The notes under the pieces: model-generated
What the model saw: the letters and a program-made list of their open reading frames with translations, nothing else
What the model was told of the DNA's origin: nothing
The model's database searches: none
In this document: one piece after another, positions 10,453-46,479 of the stretch
Numbering within the stretch: the stretch's first letter is position 1
How the letters are laid out: each line of letters opens with the position of its first letter
Assembly: GCA_964551495.1 (NCBI GenBank)
Contig: CAZKCA010000001.1
Span: forward strand, 34,384-98,383
DNA length: 64,000 bases
Direction of reading: 5' to 3'
Origin: an uncultured Candidatus Saccharibacteria bacterium
GTDB lineage: Bacteria; Patescibacteriota; Minisyncoccia; Phycocordibacterales; DATDWN01
Position numbers and translations under genes: made by a program

Positions 10453-10576
10453 TTATAATTATCATTTACATAATTTTTAATTATTTTTCTATAAAGTATT
10501 GCTAACTAAAAACTTCTTTCTCCTCATCACAATTTTAGAGCACGCATAAATTTCTGCTGAAAAATCGCTGGGTCTT

Positions 10577-10655
10577 CCCTTACAGGGACTGTACACCTTT
10601 CACATTTGATTACAAATGCTCAAGGTCTTGCGAAGCTATAACATAGCTTCTCACT
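10577..10655. repeat. Family C intergenic repeat, copy C1
   Basis: A ~79-nt stretch (cccttacagggactgtacacctttcacatttgattacaaatgctcaaggtcttgcgaagctataacatagcttctcact) is essentially identical to 35790-35868. It contains the perfect hairpin gaagctat-aaca-atagcttc. Confidence 0.7.
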
Positions 10656-28154: not shown

Positions 28155-28964
28155 GTGATAGAATTATATCTCATGACACCATTTGAGGCAATCATACTCG
28201 GCATAGTTCAAGGAGCAACAGAATTTTTACCAGTTTCTTCTTCGGGACATCTTATAATTGCAAGATCAATACTTAACCTTCCTTTGGAGTATTCTCTTAG
28301 TTTTGATGCAATACTTCAGTTTGCTAATGTAATAGCTTTGGTAATTTATTTTTGGAAAGATATATTTAAAATTTTTGTAACAATAGTTCGTTCTGTTTTT
28401 GGTATATATGTAAATAAAGAAGATAAGATTTTGGCTTGGTCTGTAGTCTTAGGAACTATACCGGCTGTTATAATAGGACTTGTTATAGAGTCTTATATGG
28501 ACACAATTTTTAGAGATGTTTTTTTGGTGGCAGTTTCTTTAGTCATCGGCAGTTTTGTTATGTTTTTTGCACAGAAACTTGGTAAGCAAGATAAGCCTCT
28601 TTCTTTGGGTAGGGGACTTGTTATCGGACTTTTTCAAAGTCTAGCTTTAATCCCTGGTATCTCTCGTTCAGGAGCAACAATTTCAGGAGGGCTTTTGGCT
28701 GGTCTTCCTAAAAACGAAGCAGTTAGATACAGTTTTGTTTTATCAATACCAATTTTACTTGGTTCTGGGGCTAAAAAACTTTTAGAAATAGATGTTTTAA
28801 ACACTTCTTTTGGAATAGATCTTTTGATCGGTTCTCTAACTTCATTTTTTGTTGGACTTTTGGTAATTCACTACTTTATAAAGTATATGAAAAACCACAA
28901 TCTAAACATTTTCATATTTTACAGAATCGCTTTAGCAATTATCTTAATTATAGCCTTATTTTAA
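28155..28964 (+). CDS. uppP: Undecaprenyl-diphosphatase
   Basis: UppP/BacA motifs (GATEFLPVSSSGHL, PGISRSGATISGG). Confidence 0.85.
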   Translation: MIELYLMTPFEAIILGIVQGATEFLPVSSSGHLIIARSILNLPLEYSLSFDAILQFANVIALVIYFWKDIFKIFVTIVRSVFGIYVNKEDKILAWSVVLGTIPAVIIGLVIESYMDTIFRDVFLVAVSLVIGSFVMFFAQKLGKQDKPLSLGRGLVIGLFQSLALIPGISRSGATISGGLLAGLPKNEAVRYSFVLSIPILLGSGAKKLLEIDVLNTSFGIDLLIGSLTSFFVGLLVIHYFIKYMKNHNLNIFIFYRIALAIILIIALF

Positions 28965-29004
28965 GACATATTTTTACCATAGACAAAAATACAACAAAAT
29001 TTGC

Positions 29005-29033
29005 TTGACAAACAATTTATAGTGTGCTAAGAT
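29005..29033 (+). promoter_or_regulatory. Near-consensus sigma70 promoter driving the orphan RNA at 29040
   Basis: TTGACA (29005-10), a 17-nt spacer, then TGc-TAAGAT (extended -10, 29028-33). Confidence 0.55.
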
Positions 29034-29039
29034 TAATAG

Positions 29040-29408
29040 TAGATAGGGAAGTCTTGTTGGTTCTCTCCCCATCACAGAGCGCGCTCGATGTTCGAGAATC
29101 AACAGGCCCAAGGTTTCGTTTCCCGGAGACCGAAGGGTTGTTAGTTTTGACAGGGATGAGTCTGGGATAGCGGGGTACCGGCACCCAGACAAATTAACAG
29201 GCCTCCTCGACAATACCGCGACAGCGTTTTTCCGGATAAAAACCCCGGGGCGCTTGGTTTAGAGGAAGATATGATCAGTGAGTGCAATGCATGGCAGACA
29301 CTGGGAGAAGACTAGTTCGTTCGTCCCACCGTCCAGTGTGTCGCACAGCTGATCCGGCCGGTTATCCGGCCAAACACGGCAGGGCGGGTTTCCTTCGGGA
29401 TCCCGCCC
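29040..29408 (+). ncRNA. Unclassified GC-rich structured RNA (~370 nt), orphan between uppP and a convergent gene
   Basis: GC content is much higher than the surroundings and no plausible ORF is present. A promoter lies upstream. The 3' end has the intrinsic terminator gggcgggtttccttcgggatcccgccc+TTTT. Confidence 0.5.
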
Positions 29409-29442
29409 TTTTACTTTTAAAATAAAAAAATATAGAAAAGAA

Positions 29443-29485
29443 ATTTTGTTTTAGCTAAAAATCTGCGAATGTTTCAAAAAGTTGT
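29443..29485. repeat. Truncated family A repeat fragment (terminal ~40 nt)
   Basis: ttttgttttagctaaaaatctgcgaatgttt matches the reverse complement of the 5' end of copy A5 (aaaacattcgcagatttttagctaaaacaaaagc). Confidence 0.5.
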
Positions 29486-29510
29486 TTTTTTAAAGTATAT
29501 GAAAAATAAG

Positions 29511-29662
29511 AATCTCTGAAACAACACCTTTCTAGAGACTCCACAGCTTTTGAGCATGGTTCCGTCAAGGCGCCCCTTCTTGACTGATCAAAAGCGAGGA
29601 CTGCTGAACAAACTCGCAGGAGTTTGTGAGGGTGCTCTAGAAAGGTGTTGTAGAGGAGATTT
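29511..29662. repeat. Family B long imperfect-palindrome element, copy B1 (ERIC-like, likely a structured RNA)
   Basis: An 18-bp perfect closing stem (aacaacacctttctagag / ctctagaaaggtgttgt) extends to ~28 bp with an internal loop. Internal hairpins cgtcaag...cttgac and acaaactc-gcag-gagtttgt are present. A homologous copy lies at 32821. Confidence 0.7.
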
Positions 29663-29678
29663 TTCCCAAACTAAACTA

Positions 29679-30260
29679 TTAAAACAAACTTTGAGTTTTT
29701 ATTTCCAGGACAGGCTCCCAGTGTTTTGTATCCAATTTTATTTCTTTGGTGAAAGGCCCTTCTTTGAAAATAAGTTTTTTATTTTTCATTGCATACTCGT
29801 AAACATCTTTTGTAATTTTTACATCATCTAGACAGTATTTTCGTATTTTATCTATTTCTCCTTGTTTCCACCATGCAACAGCTTCCAAACCATTTCCGCT
29901 TTTATGTATTCCAAAAGTCCCTTCAGCTATCTGATCTAGTTTCATCCTACGTCCGTAGGTGTTTTTTATTTCTTTCAAAATATCAAGAGACCTTATTTGA
30001 TTTAGATCTCCTAAGCCTGCTTTTTTGTAGTATTTGTTTAAAAGAGGGATATCGAAATGATCGCCATTATAGGTAATAAGCATATCTGATTTACTTATTA
30101 TTTCCCACATAGAGGGGAATTCTTCTTGGGTAAAACTTTTATAAGAATCTGATTCATAATCATAAAGTCCCACAATAGAAATATCCAAGTCAACAGGATC
30201 ATTGGACCCAACATCTTGGAATATATTTTTTGTCTCGATATCAAATACAATTTTTCGCAT
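29679..30260 (-). CDS. DEDD-family 3'-5' exonuclease (RNase H-like fold)
   Basis: Exo motif I (FDIET); the rest of the fold assignment is inferred. Confidence 0.55.
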   Translation of the reverse strand: MRKIVFDIETKNIFQDVGSNDPVDLDISIVGLYDYESDSYKSFTQEEFPSMWEIISKSDMLITYNGDHFDIPLLNKYYKKAGLGDLNQIRSLDILKEIKNTYGRRMKLDQIAEGTFGIHKSGNGLEAVAWWKQGEIDKIRKYCLDDVKITKDVYEYAMKNKKLIFKEGPFTKEIKLDTKHWEPVLEIKTQSLF

Positions 30261-32358: not shown

Positions 32359-32640
32359 TTTTTTTTAAAAAGTGGTATTTATATAAATAGGAAAGGAAAA
32401 GTTTTTGGCAACTTTCAATCCGGATATCCAATTTTTTGCGAGGGATCTCTTCAATTTTGATGAAGAGAGGAAGGAGGAAAAAAGGATTCGCCGAGCAAAG
32501 AAGCCAAGCCGAAGTCACGAGGGGACCGAAAGGAAACCCCCTCGGAACCGTCCGTGCTACCGCGCACGATAGACACAAGCCCCCACATACGTGGGGGCTT
32601 TTGAATATATAAACAACAAGAGACAAATAATTTATCATCG

Positions 32641-32760
32641 TCCTCGGTTTTTGTGAAATAAAGCACTCGAAGCTGGCCTCTCGCCAAACTCGCTACACTC
32701 AAACATGCTCCAGACTTACTTTATTTTCGTCGTTGTTTTCTAATATCCTGTGCAATGTTT
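32641..32760. repeat. Family A repeat, copy A2 (reverse orientation; variant end ctgtgcaatgtttt)
   Basis: cctcggtttttgtgaaataaagcactcgaagctggcctctcgccaaactcgctacactcaaaca... is near-identical to the core of A4 (36052-36175) in reverse. Confidence 0.7.
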
Positions 32761-32820
32761 TGGGAAATAGTGTTTTATTATTAAATTTAATATTACTAAT
32801 TTATAATTATTTACAGTTTT

Positions 32821-32977
32821 TTTAATCTCCGAAACAACAACTTTTCTGGAGACTCCACAGCTTTTGGGCATGGTTTCGTCAAGGTATTCCTTCTTGACGA
32901 ACCAAAAGCGAGGACTGCCGAACAAACTCGCAGGAGTTTGTGAGGTTGCTCCAGAAAAGTTGTTGTGGAGGAGGTTA
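32821..32977. repeat. Family B element, copy B2
   Basis: Homolog of B1. The closing stem is acaacaacttttctggag / ctccagaaaagttgttgt. Three substitutions or indels relative to B1 are each mirrored in the opposite arm. Confidence 0.7.
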
Positions 32978-35789: not shown

Positions 35790-35868
35790 GTTTTTGCTAT
35801 CCCTTACAGGGACTGTACACCTTTCACATTTGATTACAAATGCTCAAGGTCTTGCGAAGCTATAACAT
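35790..35868. repeat. Family C intergenic repeat, copy C2
   Basis: Near-identical to 10577-10655. Confidence 0.7.
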
Positions 35869-35917
35869 AGCTTCTCACTCGAATATAAAGAAAACAATCT
35901 CCTCAATACGTAGTCTT

Positions 35918-36002
35918 TCGCAAACTCGGCAAAAAGCCTCAAACATGCTCAAGACTTACTTTATTTTCGTCATTGTTTTCTAATATCCTGTGCAATGTTT
36001 TT
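35918..36002. repeat. Family A repeat, truncated copy A3 (reverse orientation, ctgtgcaatgtttt end)
   Basis: ctcaaacatgctcaagacttactttattttcgtcattgttttctaatatcctgtgcaatgttttt matches the distal half of A2. Confidence 0.6.
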
Positions 36003-36035
36003 AAAAATATGTTTTGTTTTTTTGTTTAGTCCAAA

Positions 36036-36193
36036 TCAAAAGCACACTAATAAAAACATTCGCAGGTTTTTGACTGAAATAACAGCGAGAAGCGCCAGCC
36101 GGAGACACTGTCTGAGCGTAGCGAGTTTGGCGGGAGGCCAGCTTCGAGTGCTTTATTTCACAAAAACCGAGGACGTTTTTAGTGTGTGCTTTT
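36036..36193. repeat. Family A repeat, copy A4 (forward) with copy-specific flanking inverted repeats
   Basis: Core aaaaacattcgcagg...gcgagtttggcgggaggccagcttcgagtgctttatttcacaaaaaccgaggacg. Flanks aaaagcacacta (36036-47) and tagtgtgtgctttt (36180-93) are reverse complements. Confidence 0.7.
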
Positions 36194-39772: not shown

Positions 39773-39868
39773 TGTGTAAAAAATACGGTCTATTGACAAA
39801 AAAGCTTGTTTTATGTAGGTTTATGGCGTTGCCCAAGAGGGCACAGGTTCTTTGAGAGAGGTGATGTA

Positions 39869-40660
39869 GTGCGAAATCTCGCAATCTTGCTTGTACTTTT
39901 CTGCTTTGTCCTTTTGGGCAACGCAAATGTCATCACCCCATCTTTTGATGGGGCACCTGCTGGTGGATGGGTCACGGACCGTTACCAACCCAATGTATTC
40001 GCAGATATCGGCTCTTTTCAGGGCCGAAGCGACGTTCTCCAAATCGGCATCAACGCTGCTCAGGGAATGGGCAACCGTCTTTCTGGCCAGAACGGTCAGT
40101 TCTACAATACACAGGGTATGCAGTACCTTGTGTCGGGTGGAGTTGGGTCATCCATCTCAGCTGATCTGTGGATCCCGGAAGAGTGGCGAAGCGAGCTGAA
40201 TGGTTCGCGGCGGACCGACATCTGGGGAATCATGACTGATGGTACAAATGTCACAGGGTACCTCATTTTGGGATTCACCAATTATGGAGGGACTCCAACC
40301 TTCAGGGCGTGGGAAGATACTGTTGGCAGTTGGCAGATTCTCGCCAATCCCATCCAATATAATGCATGGAATACTCTTGCGATTGTCTTTCAAGGCACTT
40401 CGTATGAGTTCTATGTAAATGGATCTTTGGCCTGGACAGATAACACAGTCAATGGATCTACCGGGTTCCGAGGCCTGATCATGCAAGCCTACAACTTCAA
40501 CGGGGATGGCTCCCTTAACGCCGTCACCGCAAATGGGACAGGGAATTACTCTGCTCATTGGGCTAATACGTCCGAAGTCCCTGAGCCGGGCACAGTTCTT
40601 CTTTCTGGTCTTGGTCTTCTGGCCCTCGGCCTCTGGCGTCGGCGCCAGCAAAGGCAGTGA
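39869..40660 (+). CDS. Secreted PEP-CTERM sorting-domain protein (high GC, likely horizontally acquired)
   Basis: GTG start after an AGAGAGG Shine-Dalgarno. Signal peptide RNLAILLVLFCFVLLGNA. The C-terminus VPEPGTVLLSGLGLLALGLWRRRQQRQ is a PEP motif, a TM helix and an Arg-rich tail. GC is ~55% against a ~33% genome. Confidence 0.7.
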   Translation: MRNLAILLVLFCFVLLGNANVITPSFDGAPAGGWVTDRYQPNVFADIGSFQGRSDVLQIGINAAQGMGNRLSGQNGQFYNTQGMQYLVSGGVGSSISADLWIPEEWRSELNGSRRTDIWGIMTDGTNVTGYLILGFTNYGGTPTFRAWEDTVGSWQILANPIQYNAWNTLAIVFQGTSYEFYVNGSLAWTDNTVNGSTGFRGLIMQAYNFNGDGSLNAVTANGTGNYSAHWANTSEVPEPGTVLLSGLGLLALGLWRRRQQRQ

Positions 40661-40705: not shown

Positions 40706-40740
40706 TTACTTAAAATATTCTTCAACCTATTACAATCAAA

Positions 40741-40895
40741 AATAAAACAACTCTCAAAAACATTCGCAGATTTTTAGCTAAAACAAAAGCGAGGAACGCC
40801 AGCCGGAGACACTGTCTGAGCGTAGCGAGTTTGGCGAGAGGTCAGTGACGAGCGCTTTGTTTTATAAAAATCGAGGACGGTTTTGAGTGTGTTTT
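40741..40895. repeat. Family A repeat, copy A5 (forward) with flanking inverted repeats
   Basis: Core (40757-40880) aaaacattcgcagatttttagc...gccagccggagacactgtctgagcgtagcgagtttggcgagagg...tcgaggacgg. Flanks aaaacaactctcaaaa and ttttgagtgtgtttt are roughly complementary. Confidence 0.65.
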
Positions 40896-46251: not shown

Positions 46252-46479
46252 TTAAAAGAAAACCGCCGATTTCTCGGCGGGTTTGATTTTGTTGAGACTG
46301 GCTTTGCGGTTGTTGTGGGAAACCTTGCCAGTCCGGTGGGAACGAAGAGTGATCTTCTTACCATTTCCGTGGCTGTTGGGCCTTCCGCTCCAACGATGCT
46401 TGTCGGCGCAGTAAGGACAACAAAGACCTTGGTAGTGAGAAGAAACACTCATCTTTTCCCTAAAAGGGTTTCGGTGCAT
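46252..46479 (-). CDS. rpmB: Putative 50S ribosomal protein bL28 (divergent); the true start may be the internal Met at 46452
   Basis: CPYC...GRPNSHGNGKK...TLRSHR resembles the L28 pattern C..[CT]GK....GNN.SH....K.R..PNLHSHR. Basic composition. Confidence 0.4.
   Translation of the reverse strand: MHRNPFREKMSVSSHYQGLCCPYCADKHRWSGRPNSHGNGKKITLRSHRTGKVSHNNRKASLNKIKPAEKSAVFF

Follow-up and report, generated by a model that had tools for sequence, protein, structure and literature searches.

Here, we describe a gene for a predicted non-coding RNA (ncRNA) in a 64-kb stretch of DNA from an uncultured CPR (Candidate Phyla Radiation) bacterium (contig CAZKCA010000001.1), called the window throughout; all positions are given in its coordinates, and numbers beginning with L denote loci or contigs from other genomes or samples. 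The gene lies on the plus strand in a lineage-specific intergenic segment of 714 bp (28965..29678), which extends from the stop codon of uppP (undecaprenyl-diphosphatase; 28155-28964, plus strand) to the stop codon of a convergent gene encoding a 193-aa protein with RNase H fold (29679-30260, minus strand). The explanation that we favour, with a probability of about 0.5, is that the locus represents a new, clade-restricted and modular family of accessory ncRNAs, which would act in trans, its 5′ domain bound by a protein and its central hairpins open to exchange. That it is a real, free-standing ncRNA gene with its own promoter and terminator, conserved structure and no coding capacity, the transcription of which is predicted, can be stated with good confidence.

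An earlier model-made reading of the same DNA, in the following the first-pass annotation, had proposed a promoter of the form TTGACA-17-TGcTAAGAT, a GC content far above a background of about 33% and a strong intrinsic terminator, and all three were recovered. The promoter spans 29005-29033 and consists of the -35 hexamer TTGACA (29005..29010), a spacer of 17 nt and an extended -10 element TGcTAAGAT (29025..29033, with TG at 29025-29026 and TAAGAT at 29028-29033), all on the plus strand. With 10 of 12 consensus positions in addition to the extended -10, it is the top promoter-like site between 28500 and 30000. The GC content of 200-nt windows over 29000-29399 amounts to 0.47-0.575, compared with 0.25-0.37 in the flanks and 0.333 in the whole window. 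The terminator (29381..29419, plus strand) is formed by the hairpin GGGCGGGUUUCCUUCGGGAUCCCGCCC (29381-29409; GGGCGGG...CCCGCCC) followed by UUUUACUUUU, with a folding energy of -21.1 kcal/mol (z = -3.3); a simple terminator scanner missed the hairpin because its stem contains an internal bulge. From the promoter spacing and the terminator, a transcript of about 375 nt (29040..29415, plus strand) is predicted. The RNA is followed in the intergenic segment by an AT-rich spacer and a repeat element, rep1 (29518-29662), and occurs as a single copy within the window. Thus, the general features of an ncRNA gene, namely promoter, terminator, lack of coding capacity and conserved structure, are all found at this locus.

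The plus strand folds with -150.2 kcal/mol (z = -4.2; none of 100 shuffled sequences was as good), the minus strand with -137.5 kcal/mol. The structure of minimum free energy is a row of local hairpins (H1 to H6, all on the plus strand) and the terminator, without a helix closing the 5′- and 3′-ends. H1 (29053..29105) is composed of a basal helix (CUUGUUGGUUCUC / GAGAAUCAACAGG), a 5′ bulge of 11 nt and an upper helix (GAGCG/UGUUC), and is followed by the small hairpin H2 (29112..29131; GGUUUC/GAGACC with a loop of 8 nt). H3 (29135..29202) has a basal helix (UUGUUAGUUU / AAAUUAACAG), a 5′ bulge of 12 nt (UGACAGGGAUGA) and an upper helix (GUCUGGG/CCCAGAC), so that H1 and H3 are built alike: a basal helix of 9-13 bp (UUGUURGUU / AAYYAACAG, then GCC), a 5′ bulge of 11-12 nt and an upper helix, the basal helices being distinguished by a single G-C/A-U swap. 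The corresponding motif TTGTTRGTT-N25-55-AAYYAACAG is found in the window only at H1 and H3, and none of 100 shuffled sequences matches it. H4 (29204..29266) is a stack of four helices with an apical loop of 9 nt containing UAAAAA and lies inside a variable block described below. The long hairpin H5 (29273..29354) has a conserved base (GAUCAGU / (A/C)GCUGAUC) and a variable interior (29285-29347). H6 (29356..29371; GGCCGG-UUAU-CCGGCC, -13.2 kcal/mol) is, like the terminator, identical in the second complete copy (L051).

Related copies were reached through the members of the 90% UppP cluster; the RNA locus was in this way found on short Logan contigs, which derive from five sequencing runs. 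The RNA is complete in L051 (SRR29704191), and L052, L050, L054 and L053 each end within it. In addition to the window, six contigs from the five runs contain the RNA at the same site downstream of uppP, which shows that a narrow clade has inherited it vertically at a single locus. Altogether, two complete and four partial sequences document the family in this clade.

The -35 hexamer is invariant in all six related contigs of alignment A4. The -10 hexamer reads TACCAT in L050 and L054 and TATAAT in L053, thus varying at positions 3-4 only, with the preceding TGc retained. The promoter is kept across relatives of 87-99% identity, and in L050 and L054 the 35 nt upstream of the -35 hexamer are scrambled. 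Judged by this alignment, the promoter is under selection, its hexamers being selectively conserved while the upstream spacer is not. The same holds for the 5′ part of the RNA: over 10 kb, L050 and the window have an identity of about 87%, yet L050 carries a single change in the first 53 nt of the RNA.

Support for the fold comes mainly from L054, which is about 90% identical to the window genome-wide and diverges past H2 into AT-rich sequence. RNAalifold applied to the full set penalises partial sequences as gaps, and the analysis was done domain by domain instead. The consensus has 26 pairs in this part, distributed over the leader, H1, H2 and a short stem flanking them, and all stay canonical between the window and L054, with three two-sided and several one-sided changes. 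In H1, one G-C pair is replaced by U-A and two changes are one-sided, in H2 one G-C pair is replaced by A-U and two pairs shift to wobbles, and every pair of both hairpins is kept; a deletion of 2 nt falls into the apical loop of H1. The 5′ leader GUAGAUAGGGAAG (29039-29051, plus strand) has its complement in CUCUCCCCAUCAC (29063-29075), the C-rich bulge of H1, and is paired with it by RNAalifold on the 5′ parts of three sequences. In L050 one G-C pair of this interaction becomes G-U, and L054 differs on each of the two strands (A>G on that of the leader, U>C on that of the bulge). These data tentatively suggest a pseudoknot between leader and H1 bulge.

A second line of evidence is the comparison with L051. 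The 4.5 kb upstream of the RNA are 98.7% identical between L051 and the window, and the RNA itself is identical over its first 173 nt (29036-29208) and its last 65 nt (29348-29412). In between lies a hypervariable central block comprising H4 and the interior of H5 (29209..29347, plus strand), with a length of 139 nt in the window and 146 nt in L051, an identity of about 63% and many indels. The only stretch shared inside the block is an island of 15 nt, UAUGAUCAGUGAGUG, at the base of H5 (29270-29284). The substitutions are of all types and not specific for adenine. Despite this heavy substitution, both H4 alleles show the same four stacked helices with internal loops of 6-7, 4 and 1-3 nt and the 9-nt UAAAAA loop, and the H5 allele of L051 is a 90-nt hairpin with the same GAUCAGU/GCUGAUC base and a different interior. 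Helices H1, H2 and H4 keep their pairing through compensatory changes; on this comparative evidence, the structure is under selection. L051 is a mosaic, with the appearance to be expected if an orthologue of a more distant lineage, constrained in its fold, had recombined into a near-identical background. From the divergent H4-H5 allele it follows that more distant carriers exist.

The variation extends to the loss of entire modules. L053 has a flank with 98.5% identity to that of the window, but here the promoter and a sequence resembling the leader (AACAAUGGAUGAAGU) run straight into an H5 of the L051 type, and H1-H4 are missing. Similar purine-rich motifs resembling AGRGGAAG are present in the leader (AUAGGGAAGU) and in the linker between H4 and H5 (UAGAGGAAGAU), and loss of H1-H4 by recombination between these two copies is plausible. 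Most Logan contigs break within the RNA, which fits polymorphism within samples. Downstream of the terminator, L051 carries small elements entirely different from those of the window, and the flank at the 193-aa gene in the strain of the L051 type does not match the window (adjacent genes 99.3-99.5% identical). Past the RNA terminator of L051 (4890-5040), a short GC-rich hairpin (UUGGCGGG...CCCACCAA) is followed by another hairpin resembling a terminator (AGAACUGC...GCAGUUCUUUUU). The two may belong to a second small transcript, for which the Rfam search gave only noise.

Outside the immediate relatives, the locus is occupied differently. In the sister species represented by L008 and L009, with UppP 89% identical, the stop codons of uppP and the 193-aa gene are 11 nt apart and the RNA is absent (L009 10355-10365). 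In L004 and L010-12 (UppP 68-75% identical), pepF, encoding an M3 oligoendopeptidase, fills the locus (L004 6866-8635; L010 5179-6936). No copy of the RNA was found by nhmmer anywhere in the retrieved loci of the L004 and L008-L012 type. Because the locus is empty in L008/L009 and holds pepF in others, H1-H4 are missing in L053 and the central third differs by about 37% between near-identical strains, the RNA appears to be accessory and not a syntenically conserved housekeeping gene, a conclusion that we draw from these comparisons with high confidence. The junction of uppP and the 193-aa gene is, as far as these loci show, a hotspot for gene content, being empty or containing pepF, the RNA with rep1, or the RNA with other elements, depending on the strain.

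Wider searches gave no further carriers. No homologue of the RNA was found by blastn in phage and plasmid collections, and six pattern scans of viral contigs, one of them with a rep1 pattern, gave only chance matches of 15-mers, none homologous by nhmmer. A metagenome scan with the gapped duplicated AAYYAACAGGCC motif returned 37 unrelated tandem repeats and no RNA homologue, and is a weak test of wider distribution; a single scan of a genome collection, based on UppP synteny, placed the window in Candidatus Paceibacterota, a CPR phylum, and returned loci without the RNA. Since no homologue outside the clade was found in what is a weak search, the RNA seems so far to be restricted to one clade of Candidatus Paceibacterota (CPR), at the level of a species or genus.

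The first-pass annotation had advised comparison with Rfam and with related genomes and had named a protein match as grounds against novelty. In Rfam, cmscan detected nothing at gathering thresholds for the window, the region or the variant allele, and at E<=10 only terminator look-alikes for a query of 851 nt, a query of 391 nt and the variant allele, so that there is no credible family match. Likewise, the covariance models of OLE, ROOL, GOLLD, HEARO and raiA gave no match. The related contigs and their compensatory changes have been presented above, and the protein search in all frames, treated below, was without a match.

None of the known families fits. The nearest parallels are the orphan “ornate” or large structured ncRNAs, which appear as GC-rich intergenic islands (raiA, OLE, ROOL, GOLLD, HEARO) in the searches of GC-rich intergenic regions by the Breaker laboratory (e.g. 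PMC11109978), and of which ROOL, GOLLD and OLE have been studied by cryo-electron microscopy (PMC12286853). As in these RNAs, a GC-rich island in an AT-rich genome comprises several hundred nucleotides with many stable helices and a probable pseudoknot, has its own promoter and terminator and lacks coding capacity, and self-association by way of several apical palindromes is conceivable in principle. In contrast, the present RNA matches none of the covariance models, is smaller than OLE, ROOL and GOLLD, is known so far from one narrow clade and swaps modules at the level of strains. We know of no description of strain-level module swapping for the raiA, OLE, ROOL, GOLLD or HEARO families.

According to the favoured explanation, the RNA is a string of independently folding GC-rich hairpins: a leader, possibly in a pseudoknot with H1, the twin bulged hairpins H1 and H3, the small H2, the stacked H4, the long H5, H6 and the terminator. 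It evolves by modules, the H4-H5 block having been replaced by a divergent allele that keeps the fold and the H1-H4 block being deletable between the AGRGGAAG-like linkers, and would act in trans as a free-standing structured RNA or particle. A protein encoded elsewhere may bind to the conserved 5′ domain, for which the repeated helix-bulge arrangement would form a platform, an idea based on the duplication of the H1/H3 motif and its specificity for this RNA. The H4-H5 hairpins might be recognised by shape, or set specificity or stability, their sequence being replaceable as long as the shape is kept. This platform mechanism, taken by itself, we regard as a tentative and rather doubtful proposal.

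Several points weigh against the explanation as a whole. Transcription is predicted from sequence signals, and the covariation, coming from two full-length and four partial sequences, is anecdotal. The mosaic allele could in principle reflect assembly across the identical prefix of 173 nt, as the Logan contigs are short. The protein partner is hypothetical, and the known signatures of protein sponges and of RNAs directed against Shine-Dalgarno (SD) sequences are missing, since neither GGA nor UCCC is enriched. Finally, the rapid loss of modules and the narrow distribution also fit a weakly selected or selfish cluster of hairpins in a hotspot that collects repeats resembling miniature inverted-repeat transposable elements (MITEs).

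Among the other explanations, a regulatory small RNA (sRNA) acting by basepairing is possible, if improbable. Exposed loops and bulges would pair with mRNAs to control translation or decay, and the variable H4-H5 would confer strain-specific targeting, with the C-rich UCCCC, CCUCCUC or the 12-nt bulge of H3 (GACAGGGAUGAG) as candidate seeds. C-rich seed motifs are reportedly a known mode in low-GC bacteria. The free-standing unit with promoter and terminator is consistent with an sRNA, as are the predicted single-stranded C-rich or G-rich stretches in the bulges of H1 and H3 and the loop of H2, and CCUCCUC at 29204-29210 equals the anti-SD core. However, relative to dinucleotide shuffles there is no enrichment of UCCC or CCUCC, so that the anti-SD seed signature is missing, the C-rich H1 bulge is apparently taken up by the leader, and CCUCC is paired within H4. 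Moreover, complementarity to anything in the window is not above chance, and sRNAs that pair by seeds are typically much shorter and less tightly folded.

The sponge RNAs of the CsrB/CsrC and RsmX/Y/Z type were considered as well. Common features are the length (about 370 nt, as in CsrB), a strong promoter, an intrinsic terminator, repeated hairpin units that vary in number between relatives, and poor conservation outside short motifs. The H3 bulge ACAGGGAUG matches ACARGGAUG, the core of the CsrA-binding sequence selected in vitro (SELEX). Csr/Rsm RNAs contain roughly one GGA per 15-18 nt. Unlike these, the present RNA has 8 GGA, with 9.3 expected, and its helices are long and GC-rich. In tblastn searches of the window with CsrA and Hfq, no significant match was obtained. 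A sponge of this type was rejected on the GGA count and the missing CsrA match in the window.

Only slightly below the basepairing sRNA, and as the other main rival, we rate the possibility that the locus is a functionless, fast-evolving cluster of GC-rich palindromic hairpins, similar to repetitive extragenic palindromic (REP) sequences or MITEs or produced by template switching, in a recombination hotspot between convergent genes and transcribed by chance. The content of the locus does vary by strain (empty, pepF, RNA and rep1, RNA and other elements), modules are gained and lost, several interspersed repeat families populate the intergenic regions of the window, and the RNA shows a mild excess of perfect palindromes (11 six-mers versus 5.0 expected, P ~0.015). 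However, none of its hairpins recurs at another place in the window or in the related loci, which amount to about 100 kb. An interspersed repeat or MITE was rejected on the grounds that the RNA is single-copy in the window and absent elsewhere from related loci, and true repeat families were readily detected. Also against a functionless cluster are the selective conservation of the promoter hexamers, the 5′ domain with 1 change in 53 nt in a relative of about 87% identity with a scrambled upstream spacer, and the compensatory changes that keep the helices.

Less probable still is a polymorphism at the level of the RNA that is subject to diversifying selection, in which a conserved scaffold (5′ pseudoknot, twin bulged hairpins, 3′ hairpin and terminator) would carry an exchangeable, structure-preserving H4-H5 cassette, with alleles circulating in the population as specificity determinant or for self-assembly via palindromic loops. 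If true, the specificity of such cassettes could concern, for example, RNA-based discrimination of self and non-self, anti-phage defence, the host interaction of episymbiotic CPR bacteria or a higher-order RNA particle.

A guide or specificity RNA of an RNA-guided or RNA-dependent system encoded elsewhere, with H4-H5 as the programmable part, is a distant prospect; omega-RNA-, bridge-RNA-, tracrRNA- and retron-like RNAs and ncRNAs of defence systems would belong here. A conserved scaffold of multiple hairpins that ends in a terminator and contains an internal segment sharply variable between near-identical strains would suit such a role. Against it, no genes for reverse transcriptase, Cas, IscB, TnpB, recombinase or transposase were found among the ORFs scanned in the window, the neighbours being core genes, including rpoB/C, dnaG, rpoD and those for RNase III, RNase R, SMC, HisRS, TypA, enolase and MreB. 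The HEARO and other Rfam models were negative, the variable block keeps its helices and exposes no guide, and matches in phage, plasmid and viral collections are lacking. The template or variable repeat of a diversity-generating retroelement was rejected with regard to the mixed, not adenine-specific substitutions, the many indels and the lack of a reverse transcriptase among the ORFs scanned. By sequence inspection only, an integron attC site was discarded as well, as the order GTT...AAC is the reverse of attC and an integrase is absent. For an H/ACA or C/D guide, a gene of the TruB family is located at a distance of 2 kb, but it is kept in relatives without the RNA, and the bulges are one-sided, with no kink-turn.

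Very unlikely is a small protein or peptide, or a decayed protein gene, in the form of an ORF of 14-18 aa (MISEC..., AUG at 29271 after GAGGA) or an Arg-rich ORF of 47 aa (29282-29425). Two GC-rich islands of the same window (32405-32572 and 46252-46467) are in fact small ORFs, and both alleles keep the start AUG/GUG-AUC-AGU-GAG-UG and an open frame into the 3′ part. However, the peptides of the two alleles have only 5 residues in common, the indels of 2 nt (L054) and 7 nt (139 versus 146 nt block) are not multiples of three, and the sole frame open in both alleles (47/53 aa) does not reach a stop until it has crossed the terminator hairpin and the U-tract. The putative start and SD sequence are buried in conserved helices, the opposite strands of which are conserved too. 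The first-pass annotation had seen no ORF here and had dismissed one on the opposite strand as junk, which agrees with our results: the longest ORFs in the region have 47-79 aa, and the one of 79 aa, on the opposite strand, is not on record and has no homologue. A frame of 83 aa on the opposite strand, and then all stop-free frames joined (395 aa), were without a match in 5.8 billion protein clusters; there are therefore no called pseudo-proteins over homologues and no sign of a decayed gene of the kind blastx would reveal.

A highly divergent housekeeping RNA below the detection of the Rfam models, be it RNase P RNA, signal recognition particle (SRP) RNA, transfer-messenger RNA (tmRNA) or 6S RNA, has next to no probability; none of the four gave a match at E<=10 with the 391-nt query. 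Of the two identities proposed in the first-pass annotation, the unknown large ncRNA gains support from the conserved promoter, the covarying pairs and the non-triplet indels, together with the lack of a protein or Rfam match, and the divergent housekeeping RNA loses it through the absence in L008/L009, the loss in L053 and the central difference; its view that RNase P RNA, tmRNA and SRP RNA are not recognisable here is thus shared by us.

For RNase P RNA, size and GC content would fit, as they would for tmRNA, and AGGGAAGUC resembles conserved region I (CR-I). In CPR bacteria, thresholds of 5 bits were needed for 10 of 35 RNase P RNAs (Lui et al. 2021, PMC8172020), and the diverged RNAs described there share with ours the CPR host, a length of 330-400 nt, high GC content, scores below the Rfam gathering thresholds and the CR-I-like AGGGAAGUC. 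RF00010 and RF00011 gave no match at gathering thresholds or at E<=10 on 391 nt, the latter corresponding to about 14 bits or more, with matches of 5-14 bits of the kind reported by Lui et al. lying below view. Unlike in CPR RNase P RNA, the CR-I-like segment starts about 8 nt past the predicted transcription start and leaves no room for P1-P3, a 5′-3′ helix is lacking, and the P4 pseudoknot of CR-I (GGAAAGUCC) and CR-V (ACAGAAnnCGGCUUA) is not formed, an ACAGAA...CUU partner being absent. An RNase P RNA should be intact in all members, whereas this locus is empty in the sister species and shows large internal deletion and replacement between strains.

The first-pass annotation had seen a weak likeness to tmRNA in GACAGGGAUG; it receives no backing from ARAGORN, which covers permuted forms and finds only a tRNA-Asn in the window, and no model of the Rfam tmRNA clan matches. 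With 4.5S RNA of E. coli (ffs) the RNA has an exact identity of 11 nt, UGUUGGUUCUC (29055-29065, equal to ffs nt 9-19; P ~0.03 by shuffling), and a segment similar to GGGAUGnAG.CUGG in common, both in the same order within a loosely colinear global alignment. Unlike 4.5S RNA, it has neither a GNAR tetraloop nor an AGCA motif with the symmetric loop of helix 8 in this alignment, no covariance model of SRP RNA matches, the covariation in L054 supports the local hairpin H1 over a long SRP-like helix, and the domain is deleted in L053; the identity was judged to be coincidental. A 6S RNA would be a rod of about 180 nt closed by its ends with a central bubble; here, the 5′- and 3′-ends are unpaired and no covariance model matches.

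Further elements were observed in the window. The repeat rep1, of about 145 nt, occurs at 29518-29662 and 32832-32976 and in L004 (11667-11804), and folds as a three-way junction closed by a stem of 17-18 bp, with 9 of 51 predicted pairs compensatory across the three copies. In the window, both copies lie immediately beyond the 3′-end of a gene on the minus strand, and the element is absent at the same sites in L008-L012; rep1 has no match in Rfam and could be a structured MITE-like element or an element of 3′ untranslated regions. Short interspersed intergenic repeats of 73-100% identity are found at 360-480, 32639-32792, 35938-36187 and 40728-40879, and further repeats connect 10576-10655 with 35800-35879 and, inverted, 29444-29491 with 40741-40788, related pieces lying downstream of the RNA in L051. 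These repeats probably explain the breaks of short-read contigs at the locus.

The GC-rich island at 32405-32603, downstream of a TruB-like gene, resembles an sRNA with terminator (GCCCCCAC...GUGGGGGCUUUU) and is actually an Arg/Pro-rich ORF of 55 aa ending in ...CYRAR. Its frame is conserved in four relatives (12, 13 and 26 variable sites among 50 each by codon position, with a concentration at the third) and occupies the same syntenic position in all of them; a Pfam match was not obtained. At 46252-46467 on the minus strand, between a DUF2975 gene and clpP, a GC-rich ORF for a basic protein of 71 aa has an AGGAGG SD sequence, a CCPYC motif and its own terminator, likewise without a match in Pfam. 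A gene for a PEP-CTERM / LamG-like secreted protein (39806-40660) lies within a GC-rich stretch of 1.2 kb (0.48), followed by a terminator and repeat copies, and may have been acquired horizontally.

For genome scans these results imply some caution: high GC content without an Rfam match does not imply a housekeeping RNA, and the two other GC-rich islands of this window are small Arg-rich ORFs. The CPR, or Patescibacteria, make up a large share of bacterial diversity, and to our knowledge almost no ncRNAs have been characterised in them besides rRNA, tRNA and RNase P RNA. The locus described here offers a clean candidate for a structured RNA specific to the CPR, and its natural variants, the truncated form and the fold-preserving allelic replacement, already mark its constant and its exchangeable parts. 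If its variability reflects selection and not drift, it would be a rare case of a bacterial ncRNA with population-level cassette polymorphism.

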